DNA of 63,865 nucleotides, counting the filler, from Reclinomonas americana ATCC 50394 (taxonomy: Eukaryota): the NCBI GenBank assembly GCA_048213135.1. It is 16 parts of 16 records of this genome, joined end to end, with 100 filler letters (N's around TTAATTAATTAA, not from the genome) between each part and the next. Parts side by side here need not be neighbours in the genome. Positions count along the whole stretch, not along the records: positions 39,808 to 45,693 come from AFZH01017486.1; 15 more parts are not named here. One strand, given 5' to 3'. This document shows positions 4,468 through 57,737 of this stretch, piece by piece (position 1 is the first letter of the stretch; each line of letters begins with the position of its first letter). Both the position numbers and the translations under genes were made by a program. The notes under the pieces are model-generated. The model was not told where the DNA came from. It was given only the letters and a program-made list of their open reading frames with translations, and did no database searches.

Positions 4468-5224
4468 CTGCGGGTGGGCAAAGGGGAAGATAAGAGTGAT
4501 GATCTCGAAAGACAGTCGCAAAACATCTCTCTTCTTCACAATCCACTACAGTTTCTGTTTCACACTTTCCCATTCTCTCCTCACTGGCAAGTGTTCTCTT
4601 GTGTGTCTCAATATTTATCAACCGATTGCGGCTGGTCTCACTTCAAATTACCCTCGCGAACCCATCGCCTGCCCACGTACTCTCTTCTTTCTCAGAGAAA
4701 TGCAAGCCTGTGCTTCCTGTCTCTCGTCGAGTCCGCTTCCTTTCGTTCTCATCTCCCTTACGATTGCTTCGTGTCCAAGCCCCCACATGCCGTCTTCAAC
4801 ATCTCACTATTTTCGCAACCCTCGCGCACGGCATCGCCACCGATCCCGTTCAAACTCTTCCAGCAGACCTCACCACATGCTCGTGTGTCTCTGCCTCTGT
4901 CTCCCCGCTGTCTTGTTCCTCAGTGCGTTTTTCTTTTATTCTCTCTCTCGCTCTCTCTCCCCCTCTCTCCCTCTCTCTCTCNNNNNNNNNNNNNNNNNNN
5001 NNNNNNNNNNNNNNNNNNNNNNNNNTTAATTAATTAANNNNNNNNNNNNNNNNNNNNNNNNNNNNNNNNNNNNNNNNNNNNTACCGTACCTACCTACCTA
5101 CCGTACCGTACCCGTACCTACCGTACTACCGTACTCTCGTCTCGTCGTCGTCGTCTCTCGTCTCTCTCTCTCTCTCTCTCTTCTTCTTCTTCTTCTTCTC
5201 TCTCTCTCTCTCCTCCTCCTCCTC

Positions 5225-5314
<90 letters not shown>

Positions 5315-5542
5315 GTCTGTCTGTCTCCTCGCTGTCGTGCTCCTCATTACGTTTCACTTTATTCTCTCTCTCTCTCTCATTCTCTCTCTCTCTCACCTCT
5401 TTCCATGCACCCTCCCTTCTCCTTTCCCCCTCCCTTCCCCTTTCCTTCCCCATCGACGCACCTGATGCCCCCTCGACACCGCCCACCGCAACAACCCCTC
5501 CCTCGGCCGATTCCTGCCCAACCACGCCCGCACATGCCGCAC

Positions 5543-11428: not shown

Positions 11429-14400
11429 TTTTCCCCCCATGCACTCACTTGCCAAGACGAATGGCCGTCTCACGCCACACAGCCGTCTGATGCAGAGCAT
11501 CGCGGAAGCGGCGGCGAGCCGGACCAGAGCGGAAGAGCAGCACGTACAGCACCGCCGCCGGGAAACCGACGGTGAAGCCGGCCAACATAATGGCGACGAA
11601 TGGCGAGGCCACAATCCACCGCGCGTCGTAGCACTGCACGGCGAGATCGGCGCGCAGGAACGACGTGCCGTTCGACAGCGACTGGCACTGGAAGAACTGG
11701 AACAGCGGCACCGACACGCCCGGGTACAGCAGGAAGCAAGCTGCACGACCACAGGTAAGCAGAAAATCGGCAAAGGTGGCGTGTGGCGACAGAGAGACGC
11801 AACTCCAAAACATGCGCTCCAGGTACAACTTCAGGCGCTTGCGTCGCTCACCCTGTGCATCGACAGACACGGTGCGTACGAGGCCCTCGGACTCGGCATT
11901 ACTGCCAATCTGTATGCAAAGGAAGATGAGCATCAAGTCGGCCTTTTCGGTGGACACAATGAGGGTGGGTGACGCACAAACTGGAACTCGTGATCCTGCG
12001 ACTTGTTGTCGCTGCGCTTTCGGTACACCGTCACAAAGTACTGCAGCGTCAACAGACCGAGCAGTGTGCCGAGCACCAGCGGGTAGGCCGTCAGGCGGGC
12101 ATAGAAGCCGGTGCTGCCGGGGAAGGTGCACTCCATGAACGCCGAGGCGCGCAGGAACTCGAGATTCATCCAGCCCCACAGCGGCTCGAGCACCTCCAGC
12201 TGCTTCGGCCACTCGAGCAGGTACGAGTTGATCACCGCCAACAGCTGCACAATGCCCACCATGACTCGCAGGTTGGCCAGCACAGTGTTGTTGCGCACAA
12301 AGTAGAAGATGCCAAAGATGGCCACCACGCCCTGCAATGGCAAGAAAGAGGTGAGAAACTGCTTCTCAGACCACAAGATGGTCTATATAACAAATCCCCT
12401 CCTCACCAACAGGGTCATGGCCAGAGTCACACCACGCACGGCGGCCGACGGGCATTCTGTACAGATGAACAGTGAGCATTCGACAATAGAACAACCTTGG
12501 TCACCAAGCAGACGCAACGCTTGCAAGTGTTGCCAGAGAGCATGAATCCGCTGGCACAAGTGGCGCAACCGCGACCAGTAAAGCCAGTGGCGCAAGGAGC
12601 TGTAGAGGCACGCACAAGGTGAGTATGAAAATAAGCATCATCATCCTGCGCCGACATCACACACGCAACTCTCTTTGCGACCCGTGCACGCGCCACGCAG
12701 CGGGCACGACAGGAACTCGGTCGAGTACGGCGCAGTCTGCCAGAAACCCGGCTCAGCGCCGAGCAGGTTGCCCTCTGAGCACATGGCATTGATCGGGCAC
12801 GGCTGGCACGAGAGGTGCGACGGGCTCGTCTCCACCACCACACCCTTGCAGGGCGCGCACGTCACCACGCCATCGGCCGACTGTGAGAACGTGCCATCGG
12901 GGCAAGCAGCCAGACGTGCGCTCAGCGGCAACGTCACCGCCGGCACCGCCGATGAGCGCACGAGCAGGTTGAACGACAGCGCAGAGGTCTGCGACGTGCC
13001 GACCGACACGTTGCTGAAGCACACGCGACCCTGGCTGGCCTGCGCAGCCACGCTACCGCTAATGACTGGCGGGGCGACGACAGTGGCAGCGGCCGCAGCA
13101 GCTCGCACGCGCTGGCTCGACGTGTCAGTGCTGTTGGTGCTGCCGGCAAGCGAGTCGTCAATCGGAATCACCGACGACGAGTCCACCGAGATGGACATGA
13201 ACGAGGAGCTGTCGCCGACAATTTGCTGCAGGGAAGAAACAAGGGCAATGAGTGACAAGAAAGAAGAGAGAGACACAGAGAGAGAGAGAGAGAGAGAAAA
13301 ACGCAACGTTGCCCAGCTGATCAGTGAGCAGCAGGCAGAACTGCGGCAACTGGCTGCCCGGGAAGGTGAGCAGCGACAGCGGCGCCGAGGCGTCCACAAT
13401 GAGACGCGACGGCTTGGAGGCCATGTCGAGACCAATCACACTAAAGTTGCCACCAAAGACATTGTTGTCCATGCGCGGCTTGACCGAGCTCGGCCAGTAC
13501 ACGGCACCGCCCGACACGGAGGCCGAGTTGTTGTTGAACGTCGAGCCCGTGACGGAGCCAATGGCGCTGTCGCGCACGTTCGGATCGACGCTGGTGCCGG
13601 CCGAGGCCTGGCGCGGCGACGACGAGGAGGCCAGCGCGTTGACGGTGAACGTCGACACCTGCAGGCTGGCGTCTTCGTTGAGCAGCAGAGCACCACCGCG
13701 CTGCGCCGAGTTGCTGGTGAAGATCGAGTCCTGGATGCTGTAGGTGAACTCCTCCGGAGTCGACAGGCCGACACCGAGGTACACCGCACCACCGACGCCG
13801 CCGCTGGCCGAGTTCTGGTCAAATGTCGAGCCGACAATGCTGACCGTGGCACCCTGCACGCCGGGGCGCGCCGGCTCCAGCACGTGAATGGCACCACCGT
13901 TGCCGGTGGCCGAGTTCAGCGTGAAAGCACCGTTGCTGATGCGCAGGTCCAGGCAGCTGGCGCACGCCACGGCGCCGCCAAACGCTGCAGAGCCGTGATC
14001 GAACGACGCGCGGTTCACCAAAAAGGCAGTGTCGCGACCAACGTACACCGCACCACCAGCGCCGTCGGCACCGGCCGTGTTGCTAGTGAACGTGGGGGCG
14101 GTGTTGAGGCGCAGCGAGCTGTTGTCGTCGGCGTAAATGGCGCCGCCAGAGCCGGTCGGATCCGAAGCCGAGTTCTTGTCAAACGTCGACGAGGCAACGC
14201 TGACTGACGAACGGAGCATGAAAATGGCACCGCCACCCTCGCCCGTCGCCACATTGTTGCTGAAAACCGCATCGGTAATCGTACCGGTCGTGTCCTCGAG
14301 GTCCACTGTGTGCGTGTGCAGAGAAAAGGTGGGTGAGTGAGAGTTGAGAGAGAGAGGATGCTGGGAGTGACGCAACATGCGCCACCACGGCTGCCGTGGT

Positions 14401-17400
14401 TGCCGGTGAAGAGGGTGCCGTCGGCAATCTGAATGGCCGCAAAGCGACCACGAATGGCCGTCTCCAGATTGTTGGTGAACTGAGAGCTGGCCAAGTTGGC
14501 CGCACCACCCGTCACCAACACCGCCACTCGCGGCAGGCTGTCAAACGTGCAGTGCGTAAAGCTGGCGGTCGAGCTCGGCCCGTTCACCACCACAGTCGCC
14601 GCCACCGAAGTCTCCGCCACCGACTCCACAAACGTGCTCGAGTCGAGGGCGAGCTTGGCATTGGCCAAGTAAACTGTCACAAGGGGGTGAGTGACTCAAG
14701 AGAGACGACGCAAAGCAACACGAGGGAGCGCAACTGGACAGCGCCTCGGTGCGGGCGGCAGAGCTGCCCGAGAAAGTGAGGCCTTGGCCCGAAAGATTGC
14801 TGCCGGCGAGGAACAAAGCACCGCCGCCAGTGGCCGACGGGTTGGCAATCGAGTTGGTCAAGAAGCGCGTGCGCGCAATCTATTTGTTGTACGGAGATTT
14901 CTTTTAGGCCCATGTGCATAGGGTAAGCAGCGAAACAAGTGTGGCACACTCACCGAGAACGGCTTGGTGGCGTCGCCAATCAAGGCCACGGCACCACCCG
15001 ACTGACCAGCCGAGTTCGACTGGAACTCACTGTCGGTGATCGAAATCGCGATCGTGTCGCGGAACAGAGTGGTCTTGGCCGACACGGCACCGCCCGACAA
15101 GCCGGCCCTGAAAAGTTGAGGTGAGCATCCCCACCACACAACAATGCGATTCTCACTGAAAACGCAACGAATTGCCAGTCAGCTTCACGCTCTGCAGCAG
15201 CAAGCTGGCGTCCTTGAGCGCCAGTGCGCCACCGAGACCCGCCGTGGCCGAGTTGCCCTCCAGCGAAGCATTCTGGATGGTGACCGACGCCGGCTGTGCC
15301 GATGCCTCAGCCTCCACGGCAATGGCTCCACCGTCGCCATCGGCCTGGTTGCCGGTGAAATCACTCAACGCCAGCAGACTGGCGCTGCCCATCCAAATGG
15401 CACCACCAGCACGACCGGCCTTGTTCATCGCAAAGCTCGACACGCTGTCGACGGTGAGCGAGGTGGCGTTGAAGTTGCCGACCAAGCTGCCGCGCAGCAC
15501 CAGCGCACCGCCGACACCGGCGGCCGAGTTGCCAGAGAACAGAGTGCCACGGAACTACGCTCAACACATGCAAAGGGAGTGAGCAGGCTGGCATGGCAAC
15601 GCAAATGTGCGCTTCGAGTATCAGACGCAACGTCGTACGCGGCCTGCACTTCGAGGTACAGAGCACCACCGTCGAGCTGAGCGTGGTTGTTCGTCACACG
15701 AGTGTCGGTGAGGCGAGCGCCCTTGATGGCGACCAGGTTGCCCTCCAGACGCGGCAAGTACACGGCACCACCACGGAAAGCGGTGTTGCCATTCAGGTTG
15801 CTACGATCGAGACGAATCTCGACACCGCCCGTCAGAGCCACGGCACCACCACCGCCACCAGCGACATTGCTGTCCATGGTGGACTCGCTGATGCGCACCG
15901 AGTTGAACGCGGTCGATTGCGTGCGGCTCACACTGCCACCATGCACGTGCACGGCACCACCATTCACACCAGCACTATCCCAAGAAGAACAAGTCAGTGA
16001 AACATGCAGACAAGGGCGCGTCATCAGCAAAGTGCACACACCGGTTGCTGAGGAAGGTGCTCGAGTGAATCCACAGCACCCAGTCGGCGTCGGTGGGTGT
16101 GCGCATGCTAATGGCGCCACCGCTCGAGGCCGTGCTGCTGCAGCTGGAGAACTTGCTGCTCACAATCTTGACAGGGGACTGTCGGCGAGCGCTTTGCGGA
16201 GTCACTGAGGATGGAGAAAGCGCGTGAGCAGTGGTGGTGATGGTGGGTTTCAGGAATGACAATCCCGCTCACCGACAATGCGCAGCGCTCCGGGTCCGTC
16301 AATGGCCTCCAGGTTGGTAAAGGTACTCTCGGTGATGGCCAGCGGTGAATCGAGGCACACCGAGGTGGGGCAATTGTCGACCACACTAATGGCGGGACCG
16401 TCCGAGTTCTGCACCGTCCAGTACGCAATCGAGATCGACTCGTTGACGTCGGTGGAGCACGGGCGCGGGCTCGAGGAGAACGAGCGCACAGACACCAGTG
16501 CCTTTGAGTAACCGAGAGCTGACGGACGTCGGTTCGGCAGCGAGAAGCTCGTCCACTGCAGCAAAGGAAAAGAGACAGTGAGTGACACACGATACAATGG
16601 CAGGGATACCCCACTGGCACGCAGCACTCACCGACACGCGATCAATGGTCACACCTGGCGCGGCTGTGCACAGCGCCACAGCGTCGATCATTTCCACGAC
16701 TGTGTTGTTGAAGTTGTTGTTGAACTGGACGCCCGTCATGTTCAAGTACAGCTGCGTTCCACGAATCGTGCCGTCAAACTCCTCATTGCCGAGCGACGGG
16801 TCTGTGGCAACAATAAAAAGTGAGTTGCGAAAGAAGACAGCCGTTGATGGAGAGCAGCAACGCAACAAGTGGTGGTATCGCGATCCATGCCCGACACGGT
16901 GACCGTGTCGAGAGTGACAGCACTATTCGTGCTGCGCGCCAGCTGCGTGCCGCCGACGACCGTCGACTTGGAGATCGTGAGCGTCGCTCCGTTGGCACCC
17001 TGCCAGAAGAGCGGCTTGCGATCGCGCAGAAGTACGCGCGAGTTGATAATGTTCACCGAGCCACCCTGCAGCGCACGCACGGCAGCCGTGGTGGAGAGGG
17101 AGCCACTCACGGCCGGATTGAACGTGATCTCATCCGAGTCGAAGCGGGCAGAGCCGGCGCCGAGCACCTCAGCGACGCCAGCATCGGGACTGGTGCCGAC
17201 AACCCAGCCCGACTCGAAAATGAGCGACGAGTCCGTGTCCACCGAGAAGGCCGTCGTACCGGCGCACGGGTACACTGCAGCGCTGTTCACTTGCAGGAAC
17301 GCGTTCTGTGATTTGGGGGAGCAGGGGATGAGAAAGGGGACTTGTTTGAAGTGGGATGGAAGCCTCGCTACTGACCTCGAGGAAAAACATGGATCCAATC

Positions 17401-37832: not shown

Positions 37833-40487
37833 GAGGAGGAGGAGGAGGAGGACGACGAGTAGGGAGGGAGGACGAAAGCATTTGCGCGAGTGCGTGAGAG
37901 ACAGAGAGGAAAAGGGAGGGAGGGAGAGAGAGAGGTAGAGAAAAAACAACGCGAGAGAGGAATCATACCCAACGCACCCGAATGCGGCGGCCGGCGCAGC
38001 AGTCACGGGCGAGCCCGGCACATCACCAGTGACGCGCTTCTTGCGGAATTCCGAGAATGACATGGGAGTGGTGGCCCCGGAGGCGGCAGCGACAGCCGCA
38101 GAAGCGCCTGCAGTGGGTGTCGGCAGCGCGTCGCTCTGCTCGTCCTTCATTATAACATCCAGTGGCGGCAGTGGCGGCAAGCCAGAAACCTCTGGTTTCT
38201 GGGCCAGATACGAGCCCAACATGCGCTTCTTCGGCGCACAAGGCGAGCTCCTGGCGAACGGCACATGAGACATGAGCGCCACAAACAAAACAGAAAGAGC
38301 GCACACACATACGACGGCGCGCAGCGCAACTCTTGGAAGCTCTGCAGCAGGTAGGCCTTCTTGCTGACAAAGCTGGGTGCAGCTGACGATGCTGCAGCAG
38401 ACGCAGCGGAGGCAGCAGCAGCGGCAGCGGCGGCCGCACCGGCACTGTCTCCACTTCCGGCCGATTGCACAGGAGTAGTGACAGCATGCGCTTGCGTGGC
38501 GACACCGTTGCCTTCAGCAGCAGCAGCAGAGGAAGCGGTGCCCGAATTACTGGACTTGCGATCCGATGCGGCCGTCTCCGACGACGCGCCTGTCTTGCCC
38601 TTCTTGCCACCTTTGCCCTTCTTGCCTGTCGCCTTGGAGACACTCGATTCAGCGGTAGCAGCGGGTGCTGGAGCGACAACTGCAGGCGGTAATGCAGCGG
38701 CAGTGGCGGCAGCGGCAGCGGCGGCAGCAGCAGCAGCAGCTTTCTTGCCCATTTTGCCGACGGAACGCGGCTTTGCATCCTCGTCCACCGCCACGTGCTT
38801 CATGTCCGCAATGCCCTTGCCTGCATAACATACACACGCGCGCATTAGTGATGTGCAAGTGGAGTACTGTAGCGTCAAGCGCCAAACCCTTCTTGCCGCC
38901 AGCAGCCGCAGTGGTCGGAGGTGCTGCTGTGGTGGTTACTGACGGTGTCGGTGTTGCTGTTGTTGTTGTTGTTGTTGTTGTTGTTGCTGTCGTCGTGGTT
39001 GTAGAAGTCGATGATAAAGATGACGGTGGTCGAGCGTCTGTTGGACCACCACGGCCAGCCATTGCGCCCCTGCCCACCGCGCTGCTGCCACCGCCACGTT
39101 TGGCCAGTGCACCACGCGCACCTCGTCCCCCACCGCGACCAGCAGCAGCAGCAGCAGAACTCTGTATTGCCGCGACGCAACATGTCAGCACGTGACACAC
39201 AAGCGAGAAGAGGAAGAGAGCAGGATCACGCACCGCATCCTCCTTGCTGCTCTTCTTGGGCTCCACCGTTGCCTCCTTGCTCTTGGCGCCGTCGCTCGCC
39301 GTCTTGGGCGCACTGCTGGCATCGCCCTTCTTACTCTTCTCAGGCACAGCAGCTCCCTTGGTCTTCTTCGCAGCATCCTTCTTCGCCTGCTTCTTCTTCT
39401 GCTCCTTCTCCTCCTCCTCTTCTTCATCCTCGTCATCATCCTCATCCTCGTCATCCTCGTCGCCACTCGACGAGCTCTCCGTCACGTACGTGAATCCTTT
39501 CGGCGTTGGCTTCTTGGTCTTCGGCGGAGTCACCTTCTTGCCACCACCACTGCTGCTGGTGCCCGACGCCGACAACTTGCGCTATTGTGCACACCAAAAA
39601 AGATGGATTCCATCACAAATCAATCAATGATTGATGATCACAATGCACACCACAATGAACACACAAAACAAGCAGCAGACACACAGCTGCACAAGCGCGC
39701 GCTCCGCNNNNNNNNNNNNNNNNNNNNNNNNNNNNNNNNNNNNNNNNNNNNTTAATTAATTAANNNNNNNNNNNNNNNNNNNNNNNNNNNNNNNNNNNNN
39801 NNNNNNNTCCTCTTTCATCTCCTTCTCCTCCTCCTCAGGCTCCACTTCCTCCTTCATCTCCACATCTTGCTGCTGCTGCTGCTGCTGCTGCGGAGGCGGC
39901 GGTGACGGCTCTGTTGCTGCAGCTTGAGCTGGTGGCGGTGACGATGGTGGTGGTGGTAGTGGTGATGATGGCGCAGGCAATGGTGACGAGGGTGGTGGTA
40001 TAGAGGAGGCCTCCATTGACGATGCAGTTGGCGGAGTTGCAGGTTGTTGTTGTTGTTGAGGTGGTGGAGGTGGTGGTGGTGACGATGGAGACGACGGCGG
40101 CGGTGGTTGTGGCGGGGAAGGCGGTGGCGACGACCGCGGCTCCTCTGCAGAGGAGGAGCCGGCGGTGTTACCGTCCACGGCCGCCTGAATCGTCAGCAGA
40201 TGCGGACAACTCCACTTGTCATCCTCGTCCTCCTCGTGCTCTTCCTCCTCTTCCTCATCCTCTAGCTGCACGAGCATTGGTGGCCACCATCTCTGCGGCG
40301 AGTGGCTACATGCGTCCTCCAGGGCGACCGCGCACATGGCCGCTGCGCGATGATCACGCGGCATTGCATACGGCGACAGTGACAGTGCTTGCAGCGAGCA
40401 CGGCATCACCACACGTCCGCGCGTCTCTCGCAAACACCGCACATAGTCGGCCACACTGGGCGGCGGCACACCGTCAGCGCGAGACAT
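35045..40487 (-). CDS. Long low-complexity (Pro/Ala/Gln/acidic/RGG) protein with one dsRBD-like domain; may be more than one gene
   Basis: Chain of GT-AG exons. Spliced segment at about 37390-37675, SKQHQLLERCRALNVKQPHIQTMQVVGGYTASVTFP..YSSEVEAREAVCEKGLEYL, fits the alpha-beta-beta-beta-alpha DSRM pattern; RS/RD-rich C-terminus. Confidence 0.55.
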
Positions 40488-40609
40488 GGTGTGCGCACGC
40501 GTGCGTGGAGTGTGCGTGTGTGCGTGTGTTTGCGCGCGCTCGCGATGATGAATGGACAGATTTTGTGAGGGACACGGGACGATGATGGGACCTCACGAAT
40601 CTTTCCACG

Positions 40610-41668
40610 ATGTCGCGCAAGTGTCTGCTTGGCCACACTGGCGTCGTGTACTCTGTCGCCATCACTCCCGACGGTCAACACGTTGTGAGTGGTGGTGGCG
40701 ACAGCACTGTGCGTGTGTGGTCGCTGGCGAGTGGCAAGGAGGTGCGACGTTTGGAGGGGCACACTGGCGTCGTGTACTCTGTCGCTGTCACTTCCGACGG
40801 CCGGCACATTGTGAGTGGTGGTGCCGGCGGCGAAGTGCGTGTGTGGTCACTGGCGAGTGGAGAGGAGGTGCGACGAATGAGCGCGCGTGTGAGTTGGGTG
40901 TTGTCTGTTGCAGTCTCCCGGGATTGCCAGCATGTTGTGAGTGGCGGCTCTGATGCGACTGTGAGAGTTTGGTCACTGGCTAGTGGTGAGGAAGTGTGGC
41001 GGTTTGAGGGGCACGATGGGATGGTGCGCGCTGTTGCCGTAACCCCCGATGATCAGCACGTCGTGAGTGGTGGCTTTGATGAAACAGTGCGGCTGTGGTC
41101 GCTGGTGAGTGGCCAAGAAGTACGGCGATTTGACGGTCACGTGCATACTGCAGACGTGTATTCTGTCGCTGCCACTCCCGATGGTCAACACATTGTGAGC
41201 GGTGGTGACGACAGCATCGTGCGAATGTGGTCGCTGGCGAGTGGAGAAGAAGTGCGGCGATTGAAGGGCCATAGTGATTCAGTTGTGAGCGTTGCTGTCA
41301 CTCCCGACGGTCGGCACGTTGTGAGTGGCAGTGATGATACGTCTGTGCGGGTGTGGTTGCTGGCGAGTGGCACGGAAGTTCGACGGCTGACGGGGCACAC
41401 TGCCGGAGTGTTCTCTGTCGCTGTCTCCCCCAATGGACAGTGCGTTGTGAGTGGGAGTGTAGACAAGAGCGTGCGAGTGTGGTCCACGCCGTATGGCCTC
41501 GCTCGGCAGGAGCTGGAGTGTGCGAGTGAGGCCATGCGCGTGTTGCAGCAGGAGGAGGAGGAGCCGGATCGGCGTTGCTTGGTGGAAATTGTGCTGCGAT
41601 GCTTCTTGGTGGAGGATGCCGAGGTGGTTGTGCATCGGTGCTTGGTGGACGACGACCTCTGGTTGTGA
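40610..41668 (+). CDS. Array WD40 protein copy A (7 blades + conserved tail), intronless
   Basis: Seven ~42-aa repeats GHxxxVxSVAVTPDGxHIVSGxxDxTVRVWS; tail YGLARQELEC...HRCLVDDDLWL. Confidence 0.92.
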   Translation: MSRKCLLGHTGVVYSVAITPDGQHVVSGGGDSTVRVWSLASGKEVRRLEGHTGVVYSVAVTSDGRHIVSGGAGGEVRVWSLASGEEVRRMSARVSWVLSVAVSRDCQHVVSGGSDATVRVWSLASGEEVWRFEGHDGMVRAVAVTPDDQHVVSGGFDETVRLWSLVSGQEVRRFDGHVHTADVYSVAATPDGQHIVSGGDDSIVRMWSLASGEEVRRLKGHSDSVVSVAVTPDGRHVVSGSDDTSVRVWLLASGTEVRRLTGHTAGVFSVAVSPNGQCVVSGSVDKSVRVWSTPYGLARQELECASEAMRVLQQEEEEPDRRCLVEIVLRCFLVEDAEVVVHRCLVDDDLWL

Positions 41669-41911
41669 AAAGGCGACGTTGATACTGCAGCGTTTCTCCA
41701 TGGTTTCTTCTCTTCGTGTGTCGGTAAAGGGGATTCTGTGTCAACATTGTCTTTGTGCACAAGTAAATGGTGTGTGCAGTGCTTGCTCATTGTTTTCTTG
41801 GCGTTGAAGTTCTGACTGATGTCCTCGAGGACGCATCGAGAATCCACGACATCTTCCCTCTACTGTACTCTCGTGACCACAGCACCTCACTCTCTCCACT
41901 CCCATTATATC

Positions 41912-42997
41912 ATGTCTTCTGCTGCCGCTGCGTCTTCTTCTCTCCCACACAAGTGTCTCCTTGGACACACTAGTGCGGTGTTTTGCGTTGCCGTCACTCC
42001 GGATGGTCAACACATTGTGAGTGGCGGTCTCGACAAGACTGTGCGTGTGTGGTCGCTGGCGAGTGGCAAGGAGGTGCGACGGTTGAAGGGCCACACTGAC
42101 TTCGTGTACTCTGTCACTGTCACTCCCAATGGTCAACACATCGTGAGTGGTAGTGGCGACAGCACTGTACGTGTGTGGTCACTGTTGATTGGCGAGGAGT
42201 TGCAGCGCATTGAGGGACACTCATGGTTGGTGCTGACTGTTGCTGTTACTCGCGATGGGCAGCACATCGTGAGTGGCGGCGCAGACAAAACTGTACGAGT
42301 ATGGTCACTGGTGAGTGGCAAGGAAGTGTGGCGACTGGAGGGACACACTGACGTGGTGCGTTCTGTCGCCGTAACCCCCGATGATCAGCACGTTGTGAGT
42401 GGTGGTTGCGACAGAACAGTGCGTGTATGGTCCATGGCGAGTGACCAAGAAGTGCGGCGTTTGGACGGGCACACCTCGTGGGTGTTCTCTGTCGCCGTCA
42501 CTCCCGATGGTCAACACATCGTGAGTGGTGGTGCCGACAGCACCGTGCGAGTGTGGTCGCTGGCGAGTGGAGAAGAAGTGCGGCGACTGGAGGGCCATAC
42601 TAATTGGGTGCAATCCGTTGCTGTCACTCCCGATGGCCGGCATGCTGTGAGTGGGAGCAAGGACAATACAGTGCGTGTGTGGTCGCTGGCAAGTGGCAAG
42701 GAAGTGCGACGGTTGGAGGAGCACACTGCTGGAGTGATCGCTGTCGCCATCTCCCCCGATAGCCAGCACATCGTGTGTGGGACACTCAGTGGCACTGTGT
42801 TTTTGTGGTCCTCGCCGTGCGGCCTCGCTCGGCAGGAGCTGGAGTGTGCACGAGCGGCCTTGCGCTCGCTGCAGGAGATGCAACGGGAGGAGGATGAGGA
42901 GCCAGATCGGCGTTGCTTGGTGGAAATCGTGCTGCGGTGCTTCTTGGTGGAGGATGCCGAGGTGGTCATCCATCGGTGTGGCGACCTCAGGTTGTGA
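41912..42997 (+). CDS. Array WD40 protein copy B (7 blades, tail end shortened)
   Basis: Starts MSSAAAASSSLPHKCLLGH; 7 repeats; ends HRCGDLRL. Confidence 0.92.
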   Translation: MSSAAAASSSLPHKCLLGHTSAVFCVAVTPDGQHIVSGGLDKTVRVWSLASGKEVRRLKGHTDFVYSVTVTPNGQHIVSGSGDSTVRVWSLLIGEELQRIEGHSWLVLTVAVTRDGQHIVSGGADKTVRVWSLVSGKEVWRLEGHTDVVRSVAVTPDDQHVVSGGCDRTVRVWSMASDQEVRRLDGHTSWVFSVAVTPDGQHIVSGGADSTVRVWSLASGEEVRRLEGHTNWVQSVAVTPDGRHAVSGSKDNTVRVWSLASGKEVRRLEEHTAGVIAVAISPDSQHIVCGTLSGTVFLWSSPCGLARQELECARAALRSLQEMQREEDEEPDRRCLVEIVLRCFLVEDAEVVIHRCGDLRL

Positions 42998-43232
42998 AAT
43001 AGGCGCCAGGCGATTCTGTTTCACTTTTTTGTTTCTTCTTTTTCGTGCGTTGGGCAAGGGCGTGCTTGATTTGTCCTCGGACATTCTGTTCCCGCCGTCG
43101 TCGTCAGAGCTCGGTCCGTCCTCACTCTCCACCTCATGTCTTCCGCCGCCGTACGAGCTCGTATGCAACAGAGGCAGTCCCCTCGTCCAGCGATCAAAAC
43201 CTCGCACTTCGCTCTCACTACATAAGCGAAGG

Positions 43233-43430
43233 ATGCTCCTCTCTCTCACCCGACCCATCTTCTATGGTATGTCAACACGCCAGTCTCTCACTTTCCTCTG
43301 TCATCCCTGTCCTCACATCTTCATGTGCGCAGGCGCAGGGGCGAAGCACTGCTCTCCTCCTCCTCCTCCACGCACTCTTGTTCTGAGGTGAGTCTCAAAC
43401 ATGACTTGCTTATACGCATGTTGTGAGGAG

Positions 43431-43490
<60 letters not shown>

Positions 43491-45297
43491 AATACATGTG
43501 AATGTGATTGACAACTGATCATCTCGCAGTCGCCTGTTTGCTTCCTCCACTTCTTCCACTCGTAAGCCTCGCAAGCCACGAAACAGCGGCACTGGTATCC
43601 TGCGTGCTGGTGAGTAAGTATTCACTCTGTCCACCTGCTCTTGTCCTCACTCCCTTCGTGCACATACACACACATAGAGAAACTGGAGAAGCTCGTTGCT
43701 GCCATGCGCCAGGCCACCCTTTGGCACGTCGACGCTGCCACGTCAGCTCGCACCAAGACGACCGACATCACCACCACCACCTACATTGAGTTGGAGCAAG
43801 GCGTGAAGTGGCCGGGAATCGGCTCGCCCATTCTGTTTGTGCGCGACTTTTACGACCGCCTCTTCTCCTCTTCTGCCGGCCTTGGTGGCCTCGATCCAGC
43901 TCGCTCATACGGCAAGCGTCACAAGTTCTACATCACGGGCACGCCTGGCATTTCCAAGTCGGCGTTCGGCATGTATGTGCTGTACCGGGCGCTGATGGCC
44001 AAGAAGACCATCCTGCTGCGCCACGGCGACATTGAGAACTTCACGCCGCATTTGATCGATGGCAAGCGCGTGTGGGCATCGGCGACGGAGATGCCGCTGA
44101 ATCGCGATCGTGGTATCGACCTGTACTTGGTGGATGGCACCAGGCCGGGTCTGTACGACACCGAGGAGGTGACAATGTCGCTCCTCATCACCTCACCGAA
44201 CCGCCTCCTCTGGCGTGACTTTGCCAAGCGCCGCGGAGTGCCGCTCTACTTCCCCACGTACCAGTACGAGGAGCTGGAGTTGTTGCGGCAGGTGGCCTTC
44301 GACGATCAGAGTCGTGAGGAGGTGCGACAGCGATATGAGATGTGGGGCGGATCGGCGCGCTCGGTTCTCTCCGACAACGACGACATTGGCCAACTCAGCT
44401 TGGAAACTGCATTCATGAAGTTCAAGCCGCAGGATCTACTGCGGGCTGTGGAGCTTGGCGCGGAACGTGAGGATGGCAGTGGCGCTGGCATCTCCCATCG
44501 CCTCGTGCACCTGATCGTTGACCGTGCCAAGTTTACGCTGGTGGGTGTGGACTTTGCCTCCGCCTATGTGGCGATGAAGCTGCTCGAGGAGTGGCGCAAG
44601 TGGCACGTACTGGACGCCAAATTCCTGCTGTCGCGTCTGCATGCGTTGGGCTCGATTGCATCGGTCATGTACGGCCATGCCTTCGAGGAGTACGCCCACA
44701 TCGTGTTGGCTGGCGGTGGACGCTTCAAGTGCCGCGAGCTGGTCAAAGGTGGTGGTGACGCACCGTCAACTGTGCTGGAGCTGGTGCCGAGTTTCGCATT
44801 TTGTGGTCTTGTCGAAGATGATGCGTGCTGTAGTTGCGCGTGCTGATGCTTCATTCACAGGCCGTTCACACGTTTTTTCCGATCTGTCGGAGGTGGTAGC
44901 GCATCACTACTGGCGTCCGAAGGCCGCCAACTTCCCCGCCATTGACTGTATCATGAACCGCACGGATGGCGGTCTGGCGCTGGGCAACATGACAATCATT
45001 GACAAGCACGAGATTGTTGCGCTGACGGAGAAGGGCCAGACTGGTCTGCTGCCTCTGGTGCAGACACTGCGCCACAACGGGGAGATCAATTTCTACTGGG
45101 TGGTGCCGGCTCGCGTCTTTGAGAGGATGCGTGAACCTGGCGCCATTCTGAACAAAACCAATCCACTGGTGGACGAGGAGGCCGTGGAGCGCCTGCGACA
45201 GCAAGTACGTCAGTTTGTGTTGTGTATCGATGTGGAACCTGCCATTGAAAAGAAGACAGAGTCGTCGCTTTATTATCACGCAATGAGAGTTTTTTAA
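43233..45297 (+). CDS. Crinkler/RHS-type P-loop NTPase + restriction-endonuclease-fold protein with a presequence-like leader; exons 43233-43266, 43333-43387, 43530-43609, 43678-44790, 44861-45297
   Basis: Walker A ITGTPGISKS, Walker B YLVDG, ITSP, WGGSAR, FASAYV, GHAFEEYAH; REase-like YWRPKAANFPAIDC..NMT...H, FYWVVP, RQFVL. Confidence 0.85.
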
Positions 45298-45671
45298 AGG
45301 CAGGTCTGTCAGTTGTCTGTCACCTTGTACTGCATCACGTCAACGAAACACTCTTTAACGAGCTCAGGGAGCGCTATCGCTACTGGAAGCACATTGGTCA
45401 CTTGTATGACGACAGTCGAGACAAGGATCCGGCCTATAGCTAGCGTTCGGCGCCAGATGACTCTGCAGCGCTTCTTCTCTTCGTGCGTTGGACAAGGGGG
45501 ATTCTGCGTCGACACTCTCTGTGTACAGTAAATGGTGTGTGCCCTGCTTGCACTCTTTGGTGGGGCACTTGGCTTTGAAGTTGAGATCGATGTCCTCGCG
45601 GACATGCACACTTCTCCGTTGTCGTCCCTCTCGTGACCACAGCAACTCACTCTCTCCACTCCCATTCTATC

Positions 45672-45693
45672 ATGTCCTCTGCCGCCTCCGTTT
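45672..45693 (+). CDS. Start of a further array WD40 copy, cut by a gap
   Basis: Full array spacer followed by ATGTCCTCTGCCGCCTCCGTT, the same start as the copy at 48830. Confidence 0.75.
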
Positions 45694-45793
45694 NNNNNNN
45701 NNNNNNNNNNNNNNNNNNNNNNNNNNNNNNNNNNNNNTTAATTAATTAANNNNNNNNNNNNNNNNNNNNNNNNNNNNNNNNNNNNNNNNNNNN

Positions 45794-45994
45794 CGGTCCA
45801 CGCCGTACGGCCTCGCTCGGCAGGAGCTGGAGTGTGCACGAGCGGCCATGCGCTCGGTGCAGGAGATGCAGCGGGAGGAGGAGGAGGAGGAGGACCGGCG
45901 TTGCTTGGTGGAGATCGTGCTGCGGTGCTTCCTGGTGGAGGATGCCGAGGTGGTTGTACATCGGTGCTTGGTGGATGACGACCTCTGGTTGTAA
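45794..45994 (+). CDS. 3' tail of an array WD40 copy (5' end in gap)
   Basis: STPYGLARQELECARAAMRSVQEMQRE6DRRCLVEIVLRCFLVEDAEVVVHRCLVDDDLWL, then TAA. Confidence 0.85.
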   Translation, partial: RSTPYGLARQELECARAAMRSVQEMQREEEEEEDRRCLVEIVLRCFLVEDAEVVVHRCLVDDDLWL

Positions 45995-46204
45995 AGGCGA
46001 CACCGAAGGCTTTCTGCTTTGTTTCTTCTCTTCGTGTGTTGTGTGCACAAGTAAATGGTGTGTGCAGTGCTTCCTTGCTCATTGGTTTCACTTGGCGTTG
46101 AAGTTCAGATCGAGCGATGATGTCCTCGCGGACATGCACTTTTCTGTTGTCTAGTCGTCCCTCTCGTGACCACAGCACCTCACTCTCTTCACTCCCGTTC
46201 TACG

Positions 46205-47296
46205 ATGTCCACTGCTGCCGCCGCCGCTTCTTCTCTCCCACACAAGCGTTTGCTTGGACACACCGGTTATGTGTGCTCCGTTTCCGTCACTCCGGATGGT
46301 CAACACATTGTAAGTTGTGGCGGTGGCGACTACGCTGTGCGTGTGTGGTCGCTGGCGAGTGGCGAGGAGGTGCGACGGTTGGAGGGACACTCTGGCGCCG
46401 TTGCCGTCACTCCCGATGGTCAACGCATAGTTAGCGGTGGTGACAAGACGGTGCGAGTGTGGTCGCTGTCGAGTGGCGAGGAGTTGCAGCGCTTTGAGGG
46501 ACACGTGAGTTGGGTGCTGTCTGTTGCTGTTACTCACGATGGGCAGCACATCGTGAGTGGCGGCATGGATAAAACTGTACGAGTGTGGTCACTGACGAGT
46601 GGCAAGGAAGTGTGGCGACTGGTGAGACGCATGCGCACCGATAACGTGCTGTCTGTTGCCGTAACCCCTGATGGTCTGCACGTCGTGAGTGGCGGTTTCG
46701 ACAGAACAGTGCGTGTGAGGTCACTGGCGAGTGGCCAAGAAGTGCAAAGGCTGGAGGGACATACTGGATTTGTGTTCTCTGTCGCCGTCACTCCCGATGG
46801 TTTGCACATAGTGAGTGGCGGGCAGGACAACACCATTCGGGTGTGGTCACTGGCGAGTGGAGAAGTGCGGCGATTGGAGGGCCACAGCGATTGGGTGCGA
46901 TCCGTTGCTGTAACCCCCAATGGTCTGCATGCTGTGAGTGGGAGCAAGGACAAGACAGTGCGTGTGTGGTCGCTGGCAAGTGGCAAGGAAGTGCGACGGT
47001 TGGAGGGGCACTCTGCAGGAGTGTTCTCTGTCGCCGTATCTCCCGACGGCCAGCATATCGTGAGTGCGGGTCTTGACAAGAGCGTGCGAGTGTGGTCCTC
47101 GCCGTGCGGCCTCGCTCGGCTGGAGCTGGAGTGTGCGAGAGAGGCCATGCGCGTGGTGCAGGAGATGCAACGGGAGAGCGGAGAGGGGGAAACGGATCGG
47201 CGTTGCTTGGTGGAAATGGTGCTGCGATGCTTTCTTTTCGAGGACGCGGCGGTCATCGTTCATCGGTCCTTGGTGGACTACGATCTCTGGTTGTGA
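46205..47296 (+). CDS. Array WD40 protein copy C (7 blades + tail)
   Basis: Starts MSTAAAAASSLPHKRLLGH; 7 repeats with small in-frame indels; tail ends DYDLWL. Confidence 0.92.
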   Translation: MSTAAAAASSLPHKRLLGHTGYVCSVSVTPDGQHIVSCGGGDYAVRVWSLASGEEVRRLEGHSGAVAVTPDGQRIVSGGDKTVRVWSLSSGEELQRFEGHVSWVLSVAVTHDGQHIVSGGMDKTVRVWSLTSGKEVWRLVRRMRTDNVLSVAVTPDGLHVVSGGFDRTVRVRSLASGQEVQRLEGHTGFVFSVAVTPDGLHIVSGGQDNTIRVWSLASGEVRRLEGHSDWVRSVAVTPNGLHAVSGSKDKTVRVWSLASGKEVRRLEGHSAGVFSVAVSPDGQHIVSAGLDKSVRVWSSPCGLARLELECAREAMRVVQEMQRESGEGETDRRCLVEMVLRCFLFEDAAVIVHRSLVDYDLWL

Positions 47297-47529
47297 AGGC
47301 GACACCGAAGGCTTTCTGCCTTGTTTCTTCTCTTCGTGCGTTGAGCAAGGGGGATTCTGTGTCGGCATTCTCTGTGTACAGTAAATGGTGTGTGCCCTGC
47401 TTGCACTCGTTGGTGGGGCACCTGGCATTGAAGTTGAGATCGATGTCCTCGCGGACATGCACTGTTCTCCGTTGTCTAGTCGTCCCTCTCGTGACCTCAG
47501 CACCTCACTCTCTCCACCCCCATTCTATC

Positions 47530-48627
47530 ATGTCCTCTGCTGCCGCCGCCGCTTCTTCTCTCCCACACAAGTGTCTCCTTGGACACGCTGGATATGTGCA
47601 CTCAGTCGCCATCACTCCCAACGGTCAACACATTGTGAGTGGTGGTGCCGACATGACTGTGCGTGTGTGGTCGCTGGAGAGTGGCGAGGAGGTGCGGCGG
47701 TTGAAGGGCCACACTGACTTCGTGCGCTCTGTCGCTGTCACTCCCGATGGTCAACACATCGTGAGTGGTGGTGCCGACAGCACTGTACGTGTGTGGTCAC
47801 TATTGAGTGGCGAGGAGGTGCAGCGATTTGAGGGACACTCATGGTTTGTACTGTCTGTTGCTGCTACTCGCGATGGGCAGCACATCGTGAGTGGCGGCAT
47901 GGATAAAACTGTACGAGTGTGGTCACTGGCGAGCGGCGAGGAAGTGTGGCGGCTGGAGGGACACGATGAGATGGTGCGCTCTGTCGCCGTAACCCCCGAT
48001 GATCAGCAAGTTGTGAGTGGTGGTTACGATAGAACAGTGCGCGTGTGGTCTCTGGCGAGTGGAGAGCAGGTGCGACGGTTGGAGGGTCACACTGATACGG
48101 TGCTGTCTGTCGCTGCCACTCCCGATGGTTTGCACATAGTAAGTGGCGGGCAGGACAACACCATTCGTCTGTGGTCGCTGGCGAGTGGAGAAGAAGTGCA
48201 GCGGTTGGAGGGCCACACTGCTTCAGTTGTGAGCGTTGCTGTCACCGCCGACGGTCTGCACGTTGTGAGTGGCAGTGATGATACGTCAGTGCGGGTGTGG
48301 TCGCTGGCGAGTGGCAAGGAAGTGCGACGGCTGGAGGGGCACACTGCTGGAGTGTTCTCTGTTGCCGTCTCCCCCGATGGCCAGTTCATCGTGAGTGGGA
48401 GTGAGGACAACACAGTGCGAGTGTGGTCCACGCCGTACGGCCTCGCTCGGCAGGAGCTGGAGTGTGCGCGAGAGGCCATGCGCGCGGTGCAGAAGATGCA
48501 GCGGGAGGAGGAGGAGGAGGAGGAGGACCGGCGTTGCTTGGTGGAGATCGTGCTGCGGTGCTTCCTGGTGGAGGATGCCGAGGTGGTTGTACATCGGTGC
48601 TTGGTGGATGACGACCTCTGGTTGTAA
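47530..48627 (+). CDS. Array WD40 protein copy D (7 blades + tail)
   Basis: Starts MSSAAAAASSLPHKCLLGH; 7 repeats; tail with an E7 tract. Confidence 0.92.
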   Translation: MSSAAAAASSLPHKCLLGHAGYVHSVAITPNGQHIVSGGADMTVRVWSLESGEEVRRLKGHTDFVRSVAVTPDGQHIVSGGADSTVRVWSLLSGEEVQRFEGHSWFVLSVAATRDGQHIVSGGMDKTVRVWSLASGEEVWRLEGHDEMVRSVAVTPDDQQVVSGGYDRTVRVWSLASGEQVRRLEGHTDTVLSVAATPDGLHIVSGGQDNTIRLWSLASGEEVQRLEGHTASVVSVAVTADGLHVVSGSDDTSVRVWSLASGKEVRRLEGHTAGVFSVAVSPDGQFIVSGSEDNTVRVWSTPYGLARQELECAREAMRAVQKMQREEEEEEEDRRCLVEIVLRCFLVEDAEVVVHRCLVDDDLWL

Positions 48628-48829
48628 AGGCGACACCGAGGCTTTCTGCTTTGTTTCTTCTCTTCGTGTGTTGTGTGCACAAGTAAATGGTGTGTGCAGT
48701 GCTCCTTGCTCATTGGTTTCACTTGGCGTTGAAGTCGAGATAGCTGTCCTCGTGGACATGCACACTTCGTTCTCCGTTGTCGTCCCTCTCGTGACCAGAG
48801 CACCTCACTCTCTCCACTCCCATTCTATC

Positions 48830-49609
48830 ATGTCCTCTGCCGCCTCCGTTTCTTCTTCTCTCCTGCACAAGTGTCTCCTTGGACACACTAGTGCGGTGTT
48901 CTCCGTCGCCATCACTCCCGACGGTCAACACATTGTGAGTGGTGGTGCCGACATCACTGTGCGTGTGTGGTCGCTGGAGAGTGGCGAGGAGGTGCGGCGG
49001 TTGAAGGGCCACACTGACTTCGTGTGCTCTGTCGCTGTCACTCCCGATGGTCAGCACATCGTGAGTGGTGGTGACAAGACGGTGCGAGTGTGGTCACTGT
49101 TGAGTGGCGAGGAGGTGCAGCGCATTGAGGGACACTCAAGGTTGGTGCTGTCTGTTGCTGTAACTCGCGATGGTCAGCACATCGTGAGTGGCGGCATGGA
49201 CAAAACTGTACGAGTGTGGTCACTGACGAGTGGCAAGGAAGTGTGGCGATTGGAGGGACACACTGACGTGGTGCGCTCTGTTGCCGTAACCCCCGATGAT
49301 CAGCACGTTGTGAGTGGTGGTTATGATAGAACATTGCGCGTGTGGTCTTTGGCGAGTGGAGAGGAGGTGCGACGGTTGGAGGGTCACGCTACAGCCGTGT
49401 TCGCTGTCGCCGTCACTCCCGATGGTCAGCACGTTGTGAGTGGGAGCAGAGACAACACCGTGCGAGTGTGGTCGCTGGTGAGTGGAGCGGAAGTGCGGCG
49501 ATTGGAGGGCCATACTGATTTGGTGCAATCCGTTGCTGTCACTCCCGACGGCCGGCACGTTGTGAGTGGGAGCAAGGACAATACAGTGCGTGTGTGGTCG
49601 CACATTTAA
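48830..49609 (+). CDS. Array WD40 copy E, truncated (6 blades, no tail); possible pseudogene
   Basis: Six repeats, then VRVWSHI and TAA, joined directly to the proximal upstream sequence of the next unit (ATG at 49666). Confidence 0.8.
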   Translation: MSSAASVSSSLLHKCLLGHTSAVFSVAITPDGQHIVSGGADITVRVWSLESGEEVRRLKGHTDFVCSVAVTPDGQHIVSGGDKTVRVWSLLSGEEVQRIEGHSRLVLSVAVTRDGQHIVSGGMDKTVRVWSLTSGKEVWRLEGHTDVVRSVAVTPDDQHVVSGGYDRTLRVWSLASGEEVRRLEGHATAVFAVAVTPDGQHVVSGSRDNTVRVWSLVSGAEVRRLEGHTDLVQSVAVTPDGRHVVSGSKDNTVRVWSHI

Positions 49610-55919: not shown

Positions 55920-57178
55920 AGTAATACTCTACGAAGAAGGAGAGAGAGATACACACACGACGAACGAAAAGAACGGTACGGTAAGGAAGGAAGGAAGGAA
56001 GGAAGGAAGGAGGNNNNNNNNNNNNNNNNNNNNNNNNNNNNNNNNNNNNNNNNNNNNTTAATTAATTAANNNNNNNNNNNNNNNNNNNNNNNNNNNNNNN
56101 NNNNNNNNNNNNNGTTGTAGTACGTTCATCTAACTAATTTTCCCGTCCTTTTGTTCTCACTCCTCGCTCGTACCGTACCATCCGCCTTCGGTCCGGTACC
56201 AGCAGGGAAGTAATACTCTACAAGGAGAGAATGGAGATACAACATCGCAAAGAAAGCGTAGAGAGAGAGAGAGAGAGAGTGACGATATGCAGGCCGACGA
56301 AGCAACTTGTAGTGATTGTGACTTGCGTTGCAAAAACGAATGATGAGAGAGACAGTGAGAGCACAACGAGGAGAGGGAGGCAGAACTGACAGTGAAGTGA
56401 GGAAGTAAGGACAGCAAAGAGCGAGTTGCGGAAGGAGAGGGGTGAAGGGGAGGACAAGATGATGAGAATAAGAACAGGAGAGGCATTAATTTGCAGAACA
56501 GAAAGGAGAATAGGGCCGTTCGCAATGCCTTGTTTTCTCTCTCCCTCTCTCCCTCCTTCCCCCCCTCCTCTCTCTCTCCACAAACCTCCACATCCCTCAT
56601 CGAGTGGCCCTGGTTGGCACGAATGTACATATCGCCGTCAAACTCGCGCACCGCAAAGCGCTGCTTCTTGCACATCTGTGCCATTCTCAGCACGTCCTCG
56701 ACGGACCTGAGAGGAGAGAGAAAGTGAATCAATAAGAACGGAGGAGTGAGAGAAGCAGACGAGAAAGACGGAGAGAGATGAACAAAAGAGGCGACGAAGG
56801 AGGAGAAGAAGGTGGAGGGAGAATGAAAGAGGGAAAAATGAAGGGGAGTGACGATGACAAGACGAAGACGGGGGAGGCGGAGAAGAAGGAGAGAGAGAAA
56901 AGCGAATGGCGCAGAGTGAGCAGACAACGCACTTTGTTGGGCACCGCCGAATGCGCATAATCTCATCGATACGCACAAACCCATCCGGTCGCATATCAAG
57001 GCCCTCCTCATGCGCTCCATGCCTACAACAACAGATATCAGCAAGATACCTGGGAGCCACAAATAGACGATTTCGCGTGCACTCACCGAAGCACATATGA
57101 GAAGAACTTGCTCAGACGCGTGTTGTAGTCGTCGTCGCCACCCCGTCCTCCTCTCGGTCTTCCAGCAGCAGCAGCCAT
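54520..57178 (-). CDS. TPT1: tRNA 2'-phosphotransferase (Tpt1/KptA), 5 exons, spanning a gap
   Basis: LSKFFSYVLRHGA, DGFV, KQRF, IRANQGHS, HGT, GLNRMRRQHIH, ISGMR, SANNVILSEGIDGVIPPEFF. Confidence 0.95.
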
Positions 57179-57737
57179 AAATAGACGACTGTATGCAAGG
57201 AAAAACACGACGGACAAGAACATGAGTGAAAAAGGGAGAAGAGAAGGGGAGGGAGACAGGGGAAGGAAGAGGGGGCCAAGGGCAGAGGAAGAATGGGGAA
57301 AGAGAAGGAACGAATGGGGATGAGAAGAGTGAGTGAGTGGGAGAGTGAGTAAGGGAGTGAGAGAGAGATAGGGAGACAGGGAGGGGAAAGACAAGAAAGT
57401 AGGAGAGGAAGGAGAAGAAGAAATGAGATCAGAAAAGGGCGATGACAGAGAGGAGAGAGACAGAGAGAGAATGAGAGAAACAGTGAGAGTTTTCAGAGAC
57501 GCGCAACGATGTGATCGATCGCGCGCAGCAAATGACTGACAAAGACGACACAAGCAGCAACATGTGAGATTGAGAGGGAGGGACTCACTCACGTAGAAGA
57601 GAAGCAACAATCAAAGACGGGCTTCTGTTGTTTTTCGCGCGCAAAAAAGATTGAAGGGACAGTTTGATGCCAGCGAGCCTCGATTGTCACGCCTCGACCG
57701 CCTCGAGAGAACCTGAGAGAGTTTTCTTCGTTGTGTG

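Follow-up and report, generated by a model that had tools for sequence, protein, structure and literature searches.

A gene on the plus strand (positions 43233-45297) of a 63,865-nucleotide stretch of DNA from Reclinomonas americana ATCC 50394 (assembly GCA_048213135.1; the whole stretch, made of contigs chained by N spacers, is hereafter called the window) has five predicted exons and a predicted product of 573 residues. This product combines a presequence-like leader with a P-loop NTPase of the Crinkler/RHS (CR) class and a nuclease-like tail. Crinkler-type proteins are best known as parasite weapons with a nuclear site of action. Import of the protein into mitochondria appears likely from its leader, and the explanation preferred here, with somewhat less than even confidence, is that an imported CR NTPase-nuclease may cut nucleic acid of foreign or selfish origin in the matrix of the cell's own mitochondria.

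Gene structure and the presequence-like leader

The whole gene lies within a single contig (AFZH01017486.1, window positions 39808-45693), from an ATG at 43233 to a stop codon at 45297, and every intron is of the GT..AG type. Introns 1 to 3, of 66, 142 and 68 nt, interrupt the gene in phases 1, 2 and 1 and join three small 5' exons in frame to the NTPase exon at 43678, as had been claimed in an original prediction made from this DNA. A fourth intron (44791-44860) separates the NTPase exon from the nuclease exon. Its donor was placed at 44790/44791 because a rival donor at 44755 leaves a gap of 11-18 residues relative to intron-less paralogs, with which the preferred junction aligns throughout. 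Splicing of the gene as modelled is regarded as highly probable. The gene is made of the following parts:

43233-43266, plus strand: exon 1, start codon and first 11 leader residues (ATG; GTATGT donor, phase 1; 74% DNA identity to exon 1 of the paralogs on contigs C57 and C1339)
43333-43387, plus strand: exon 2, middle of the leader, Pro-rich in the window copy (CAG acceptor; GTGAGT donor, phase 2)
43530-43609, plus strand: exon 3, candidate cleavage site R-L-F-A-S, with a putative cut after Phe (43531-43545), Ser/Thr run, basic patch and linker (CAG acceptor; GTGAGT donor, phase 1)
43678-44790, plus strand: exon 4, CR-type P-loop NTPase and helical domains (homologs, invariant residues, model and fold matches)
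43938-43961, 44133-44135 and 44358-44360, plus strand, within exon 4: Walker A GTPGISKS, Walker B Asp and a conserved Arg
44861-45297, plus strand: exon 5, nuclease-like (restriction endonuclease-type, REase) domain and stop codon (conserved columns, model, weak fold matches)
44944-44946, 44986-44994 and 45007-45009, plus strand, within exon 5: Asp, N-x-T and His of the family motif D..[Q/N]xT..H

The predicted leader covers about 57 residues ahead of the NTPase exon, starts M-L-L-S-L-T-R, is rich in Arg, Ser and Leu and contains neither Asp nor Glu before residue 58. The word R-L-F-A-S occupies residues 31-35 (RLFA from residue 31), so that both the acid-free composition and the motif were found where they had been claimed. 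The cleavage motif of the mitochondrial processing peptidase (MPP) is taken as R-x-[YFL]/[SA], the slash marking the cut. Neither exon 4 nor exon 5 of the window gene has a Pfam match, and no ubiquitin-like (Ubl) or helical header is present before the NTPase. Likewise, inspection of 12 modelled N-termini of the family revealed neither an LxLFLAK/DWL Ubl header nor a hydrophobic signal peptide.

This gene is one of many. Matches to the NTPase were found on 24 contigs of the genome, which is a minimum and counts allelic pairs, and leader models over these contigs were complete in 12 cases, partial in 6 and not clean in 2, the DNA being absent in the remaining 4. In seven divergent copies the leader is spread over three exons with phases 1/2/1. 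In these copies the lengths of exon 2 (55, 82, 58, 58, 58, 85 and 73 nt) are all 1 mod 3 and those of exon 3 (80, 98, 74, 74, 74, 68 and 68 nt) all 2 mod 3; R-x-F opens exon 3 in six of the seven and lies deeper inside it in C57. Indels between close pairs were multiples of three in all three exon cases, against 4 of 10 intron cases. In C1339 the first internal Met is replaced by Ile, and an upstream start is therefore needed. The leader peptides themselves are highly divergent, and subfamilies carrying them reach down to 27-40% identity; at that distance the paralogs have another exon layout, and their leader, still of this kind, is followed by what reads in the sequence as a coiled-coil-like stretch. 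Chance expectation was estimated from 2585 ATG-started, stop-free 60-codon frames from loci of the genome. A composition rule of our own making (first 25 residues without an acidic residue, at least one Arg, hydrophobic start) held for 12/12 complete family leaders against 286 of the chance frames (11%), and combined with R-x-[YFL]-[SA] for 10 of the 12 against 43 (1.7%). Judged from these comparisons, the leader is a coding and family-wide trait.

Mitochondrial genes of the same genome offered a comparison. An MPP-alpha-like gene starts M-L-L-S-V-R-R and contains R-M-F-A-S, which is stylistically close to the window leader. The composition rule held for this gene, for MPP-beta (recognised by its HxxEH motif) and for the first exon of cytochrome c1, and failed for an insulysin-like control and five WD40 frames. 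A search of the genome found a single eukaryotic chaperonin-60 locus which, together with the lack of a hydrophobic signal peptide, argues against a plastid address. A search of the genome for SufB/D was blank; it says little on plastids, as a co-assembled bacterium was also unmatched.

A similar leader occurs in a second clade, found in metagenomes and separate from the copies of the R. americana genome with a Shimodaira-Hasegawa-like approximate likelihood ratio test (SH-aLRT) support of 100 in a quick tree of 113 rows, in which SH-aLRT was the only support measure and leaderless rows often come from truncated gene calls. Here leader, header, NTPase and nuclease follow one another in a single frame. 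Of 45 matches to one clade member, the header is present in 33, of which 23 have a Met start 15 or more residues upstream of it. In 17 of these 23 full-length sequences the stretch before the header holds no more than one acidic residue and two or more Arg, against 103 of 2336 windows of mature parts, Asp plus Glu amounting to 1.5% in the leaders versus 11.3%. The header is not called by Pfam; in the ESM Atlas the queried clade member lies beside Crinkler clusters at 0.94-0.95. Nine metagenome contigs of the clade were examined. One of them (locus L139) has an in-frame stop six codons upstream of the leader Met, and three others (L137, L138 and L141) show, as read by eye, a leader-like first exon followed by a GTGAGT donor, which points to eukaryotic hosts. 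Beside the CR gene of L137, a frame at 4041-5381 is presumably related to eukaryotic 4-hydroxyphenylpyruvate dioxygenase. Viral contigs yielded no relative, and neither did a first metagenome scan. Family conservation, the three mitochondrial controls and this second clade together argue for the mitochondrial-type leader that had been predicted.

NTPase and nuclease-like domains

A search with the NTPase exon returned 1117 cluster representatives at E<=0.001, the best being 37% identical. Among 91 aligned homologs scanned with Pfam, three have the Crinkler header PF20147, 16 match nSTAND3 and one matches RHSP. Residues G87, G90, K93, D152 and G223 are invariant in 115 sequences; K93, D152 and R227 are present in the window NTPase. 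The neighbours of the window protein in the ESM Atlas include RHS clusters (0.95-0.96). A model of exon 4, with a predicted local distance difference test (pLDDT) score of 88, matched mitoribosome chains/mS29, the NB-ARC domain of NLR proteins and Cdc6/Orc1, all close together at Z 8-9.5. A phmmer search of PDB gave no significant match, and a word-indexed protein search returned one match. By these matches the window NTPase belongs to the CR class of CDC6/ORC1-STAND-type NTPases.

The nuclease-like domain is encoded mainly by exon 5, its start lying in exon 4. In the homologs, the columns of its motif are occupied by Asp in 83/90, Gln or Asn in 83/90, Thr in 82/90 and His in 81/90 sequences. 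It was assigned as a nuclease because of the family architecture and this motif, no clear fold match having been obtained, and an active nuclease seems fairly probable. The domain content originally predicted, a Crinkler/RHS-type NTPase followed by a nuclease-like domain, is thus upheld by homologs, PF20147 relatives, the family motif and the ESM Atlas, with a weak fold match for the nuclease. In comparisons with paralogs, dN/dS (the ratio of non-synonymous to synonymous substitution rates) was 0.23-0.34 for the NTPase exon (11 paralogs) and 0.26-0.48 for the nuclease exon (10 paralogs), with dS near saturation. Both exons are under purifying selection.

Mitoribosome chains accounted for 7 of the 18 top structural rows, aligned from model residue 11-17 on over about 200 residues at 11-16% identity. 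These chains, which we take to be mS29, include one that the profile search names as such, and yeast mS29 was placed second to fourth in the profile search of PDB (E 0.008). Kinship of CR NTPases with mS29/DAP3 and Yme2 has already been published, CR-ATPases having been grouped with the mitochondrial S29/Dap3 and RNA12 proteins (PMC8195603), and the fold and profile matches obtained here agree with it. The window protein is nevertheless not an mS29 ortholog. A search of the genome for PF10236 (DAP3) found nothing, a result that is uninformative for intron-rich genes.

These likenesses, together with an altered P-loop described below and the purifying selection, could also fit a domesticated mitochondrial housekeeping factor, which would have followed the path of mS29/DAP3 and Yme2 into mitochondrial DNA (mtDNA) recombination or repair, RNA processing or partnership with the mitoribosome. 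However, the mS29 rows lie within one Z unit of the NLR and Cdc6 rows, and a lineage-restricted expansion, dN/dS values up to 0.25-0.5, a shared nuclease tail and broken copies would be untypical of such a factor. A housekeeping role is judged improbable.

Possible role in mitochondria

In the preferred explanation, the leader would replace the usual trafficking header, or precede one in some relatives, and would take the precursor through TOM/TIM23 into the cell's own matrix. MPP may cut it near residue 33 (between Phe and Ala of R-L-F-A-S), leaving an NTPase-nuclease of about 540 residues. The NTPase would bind nucleic acid, oligomerise and gate the C-terminal nuclease. Since no secretion signal was seen, the target would have to be inside the cell's own mitochondria, where plasmids, mobile introns, virus-like replicons or rogue mtDNA are candidates; death of the organelle or of the cell might be a fallback outcome. 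The presence of a cytochrome c1 gene implies complex III and, by established knowledge, a mitochondrial genome.

The evolution of the family is consistent with such a conflict. Broken or altered copies include an in-frame stop (C7005), an inverted piece (C13) and a conserved Asp replaced by His (C44). Opposite-strand parts of one gene were seen both in the CR copy on C13 (L113) and in chaperonin-60 on C356 (L061-L063), and may be local inversions or mis-scaffolding. In close paralogs (L002-L010) the Walker A codons are split by an intron (window 43952) that is lacking in the window copy, and the last intron (44791-44860) is missing from C44, C188, C13 and C323; intron gain and loss within the family is rapid. 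Dispersal, divergence and broken copies are better accounted for by conflict than by a housekeeping role.

Import could instead serve a programme by which the cell removes its own mtDNA, in uniparental inheritance after mating, in the purging of defective genomes or in suicide. All import evidence applies to this alternative as well, and the nuclease motif is conserved. Many genes of the assembly are present as near-identical pairs on two contigs, as in a heterozygous diploid, so that mating may be possible. For such a task, however, one or two genes would be enough; matches on 24 contigs, turnover and broken copies fit an arms race better, and mtDNA removal as the role of the family is rather improbable.

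Several observations weigh against the picture of an imported nuclease that is gated by NTP and directed at foreign nucleic acid in the matrix. The exon models were picked by eye, independently of a presequence-blind splice-score search; that search over-added upstream exons and left the window copy without a model, and in close paralogs it picked up exon 3 while mostly missing the first exon. The leader rules had been fixed after the sequences were viewed, and the motif definition was altered once: in its first version it passed 5/12 leaders, the models then including two with coordinate slips. The unclean leader models are those of C2458 and C5780, and C187 has Cys where the motif Arg is expected. 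The window leader is among the weaker ones, with one Arg in its first 15 residues and a run of five prolines. Its amphipathicity is modest, the hydrophobic moment being 0.44 (0.34-0.82 in the family; 0.40, 0.79 and 0.70 in the three mitochondrial controls; 0.54 in a cytosolic control), and a basic patch after the cleavage-like site could act as a nuclear signal. The DNA of the second clade is GC-rich (0.53-0.76), 29 of 167 chance frames there satisfy the loose rule and the members are related; this clade therefore supports a mitochondrial leader without proving it.

In the catalytic domains, the P-loop of the window NTPase reads GISKS, with Ser before Lys, while 140 resolved sequences out of 150 outside homologs have Gly (136) or Ala (4) and never Ser. 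This Ser is common to 8 of 9 resolved subfamily copies, C187 keeping the usual P-loop, and NTP gating may be impaired by it. The exon 5 model (pLDDT 87) gave fold matches of Z<=4.2 only, with an unrelated top row, in a search with exon 5 alone that left the domain start, encoded in exon 4, outside the model; restriction-type nucleases do recur in its list, where SdaI, BspD6I, FokI, NucS and ERCC4-type chains stand among unrelated rows. Finally, a search of the assembly for COX1 turned up a 597-bp fragment besides two bacterial genes; no mtDNA of the organism itself was found, and no target was seen. The fragment (L078) is an AT-rich contig, C14726, with a frameshifted cox1 start. It resembles land-plant cox1 and is presumably a contaminant rather than mtDNA of the organism.

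Some of these points would suit a leader that is not mitochondrial at all, that is, a low-complexity linker or a 5' untranslated region in front of an ordinary CR protein of the nucleus or cytosol whose first residue is the Met of exon 4. Most subfamily copies do have an in-frame Met early in exon 4, the window copy is weakly amphipathic and has the basic patch, and Arg-rich, acid-poor frames are favoured by GC-rich DNA; moreover, the Crinkler proteins (CRNs) localised so far are all nuclear in the accounts available (PMC5289972). This alternative leaves unexplained why the frame of the leader exons is kept in seven copies, why R-x-F stands at a fixed place, and why the leader resembles the mitochondrial leaders of the same genome. 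It is further opposed by the loss of the exon 4 Met in C1339, and by the unbroken leader-header frames of the second clade, where L139 has its in-frame stop six codons ahead of the leader Met. A non-mitochondrial leader is thus considered unlikely.

Dispersal of the copies also recalls a selfish element, either a still-mobile transposon or a toxin harming the mitochondria of non-carrier progeny or partners. Pairs of CR NTPase and REase have been tied to transposons (PMC5289972), and the window copy is flanked by duplicated spacer sequence of a WD40 gene array. On the other hand, transposon ends were sought and none was found, no flank sequence was found to be shared with 16 paralog loci, introns are conserved, no antidote-like neighbour was seen and no relative turned up in viral contigs, making a selfish element very unlikely. 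Delivery to a bacterial endosymbiont, which the original prediction had left open next to mitochondria, has little to recommend it beyond a bacterial genome co-assembled with the eukaryote (L039 and L041 on contigs C1 and C2, both larger than 1.6 Mb, about 46% GC at the loci seen). An 18S search of the assembly yielded bacterial 16S only. The leader matches the MPP-type presequences of the cell itself, the only bacterium in the assembly consists of Mb-sized contigs and nothing indicates that it is intracellular; an endosymbiont target is hardly credible. The original prediction had treated a single gene, and what it observed of that gene stood; of its interpretation, the domain content and the type of leader are supported, whereas attack on mtDNA, cell suicide and uniparental inheritance are candidate roles only. 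It had overlooked the multi-copy family, the coiled coil of distant paralogs and the Ser in the P-loop.

More broadly, imported CR proteins could represent an unrecognised class of nucleus-encoded, mitochondria-imported and NTP-gated nucleases, an organellar restriction or abortive defence present in more than one lineage behind different headers, and a living example of how mS29/DAP3 and Yme2 entered mitochondria and were domesticated. This wider view is possible, if doubtful. Policing of mitochondrial plasmids, introns and viruses, like the removal of mtDNA, is little known outside a few model organisms. As single-chain proteins, members of the family lend themselves to tests of import, cleavage, ATPase and nuclease activity in yeast, and a natural family of mitochondria-targeted nucleases might find use in mtDNA manipulation.

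The neighbourhood of the gene contains the following features:

41816-42997, plus strand: intronless WD40 reading frame of seven repeats, part of a tandem array, without presequence (seven stretches matched by Pfam WD40; leader rule failed)
43136-43160, plus strand: remnant start of a WD40 array unit, with ATG (sequence and frames; the spacer resembles other array units)
45322-45435, plus strand: 114-bp element that follows the CR gene and precedes the next WD40 spacer (stretches on C496 and C384 match it at about 95% identity)

The ATG at 43136 could be a short upstream open reading frame or an alternative first exon (donor at 43161, phase 1), which would be in frame with exon 2 and likewise without acidic residues. 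The WD40 genes of the tandem array, which are intronless and have seven repeats and a distinctive acidic helical tail, extend over window positions 40586-49609 and recur on many contigs. A search with the WD40 tail gave 1573 candidates, of which 150 were scored and all were significant, revealing a huge, otherwise intron-free family in an intron-rich genome; a repertoire of variable sensors is a candidate function. A WD40 gene of this family lies directly upstream of the CR gene, on the same strand, in 4 of 17 loci (the window, L117 on C1339, L127 on C7005 and L130 on C4226) representing three divergent subfamilies. A functional WD40-CR pair was rejected: with about 1570 candidates and no presequence in the WD40 family, co-location in fast-evolving regions is a sufficient explanation.

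Elsewhere in the window, an intron-rich gene at 8400-9960 has a presequence-like start with the word R-V-F-S-S at 8533. This word had been attributed to MGM101; it is present, while the gene name was not confirmed, a motif near 9650 that we take to be Mgm101/Rad52-like being unconfirmed by Pfam or PDB from single exons. Two minus-strand features lie on contigs other than that of the CR gene: a frame with Chlamydia-PMP/beta-helix repeats (13161-14540) and a weak Tpt1/KptA 2'-phosphotransferase match (56160-57428).

Comparison with known systems

Zhang et al. in 2016 reportedly defined the architecture of CR NTPase, helix-turn-helix (HTH) and REase domains for CRNs of oomycetes and fungi. Our search of titles and abstract openings found no mitochondria-targeted CR, CRN or RHS protein, and the report of Zhang et al. 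or its supplements might already record such leaders. The window protein shares with oomycete and fungal CRNs the succession of P-loop NTPase, helical domain and nuclease-like tail, a multi-copy organisation and variable N-termini (PMC5289972). Gating of the nuclease by the NTPase has been proposed for CR proteins generally, and the headers described for CRNs are Ubl, helical or HTH, mitochondria being unmentioned in the accessible portions of that source (PMC5289972). By contrast, the window subfamily is without Ubl header and has a presequence-like leader in its place, which in distant paralogs precedes a coiled coil and in the metagenome clade a Crinkler-like header. Lacking the Ubl header, the window protein falls outside the classical CRNs; it is of the CR class by its NTPase.

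Trypanosome RHS proteins (PF07999) are alike in their ESM Atlas neighbourhood and in weak PF07999 matches among homologs. They differ from the window protein in having RHS_N/DUF7578 N-termini and in being known as nuclear. Among mitochondrial proteins, mS29/DAP3 and Yme2 are single-copy, ancient and not known to have a nuclease tail, unlike the window family. They are mitochondrial, as the window family probably is, and have STAND-type NTPases placed near the CR-ATPases (PMC8195603). The window family bears on the origin of mitoribosomal mS29 (MRPS29), which is described as pan-eukaryotic and absent from bacteria (PMC1950548).

The reason why free-living eukaryotes retain Crinkler-type proteins has been called an open question (PMC12957317); for one CR branch, a mitochondrial address offers a testable answer, namely conflict inside the organelle. 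AACRNL, a Crinkler-like protein of free-living animals, differs in that its effector is an ADP-ribosyltransferase with chromatin and immune signalling as its field of action, the available parts of its description showing neither an NTPase-nuclease pair nor an organelle signal (PMC12957317). Like the window protein, it is nevertheless a CR-type protein of a non-parasite, which has lost the host-targeting header and acts in its own cell (PMC12957317).

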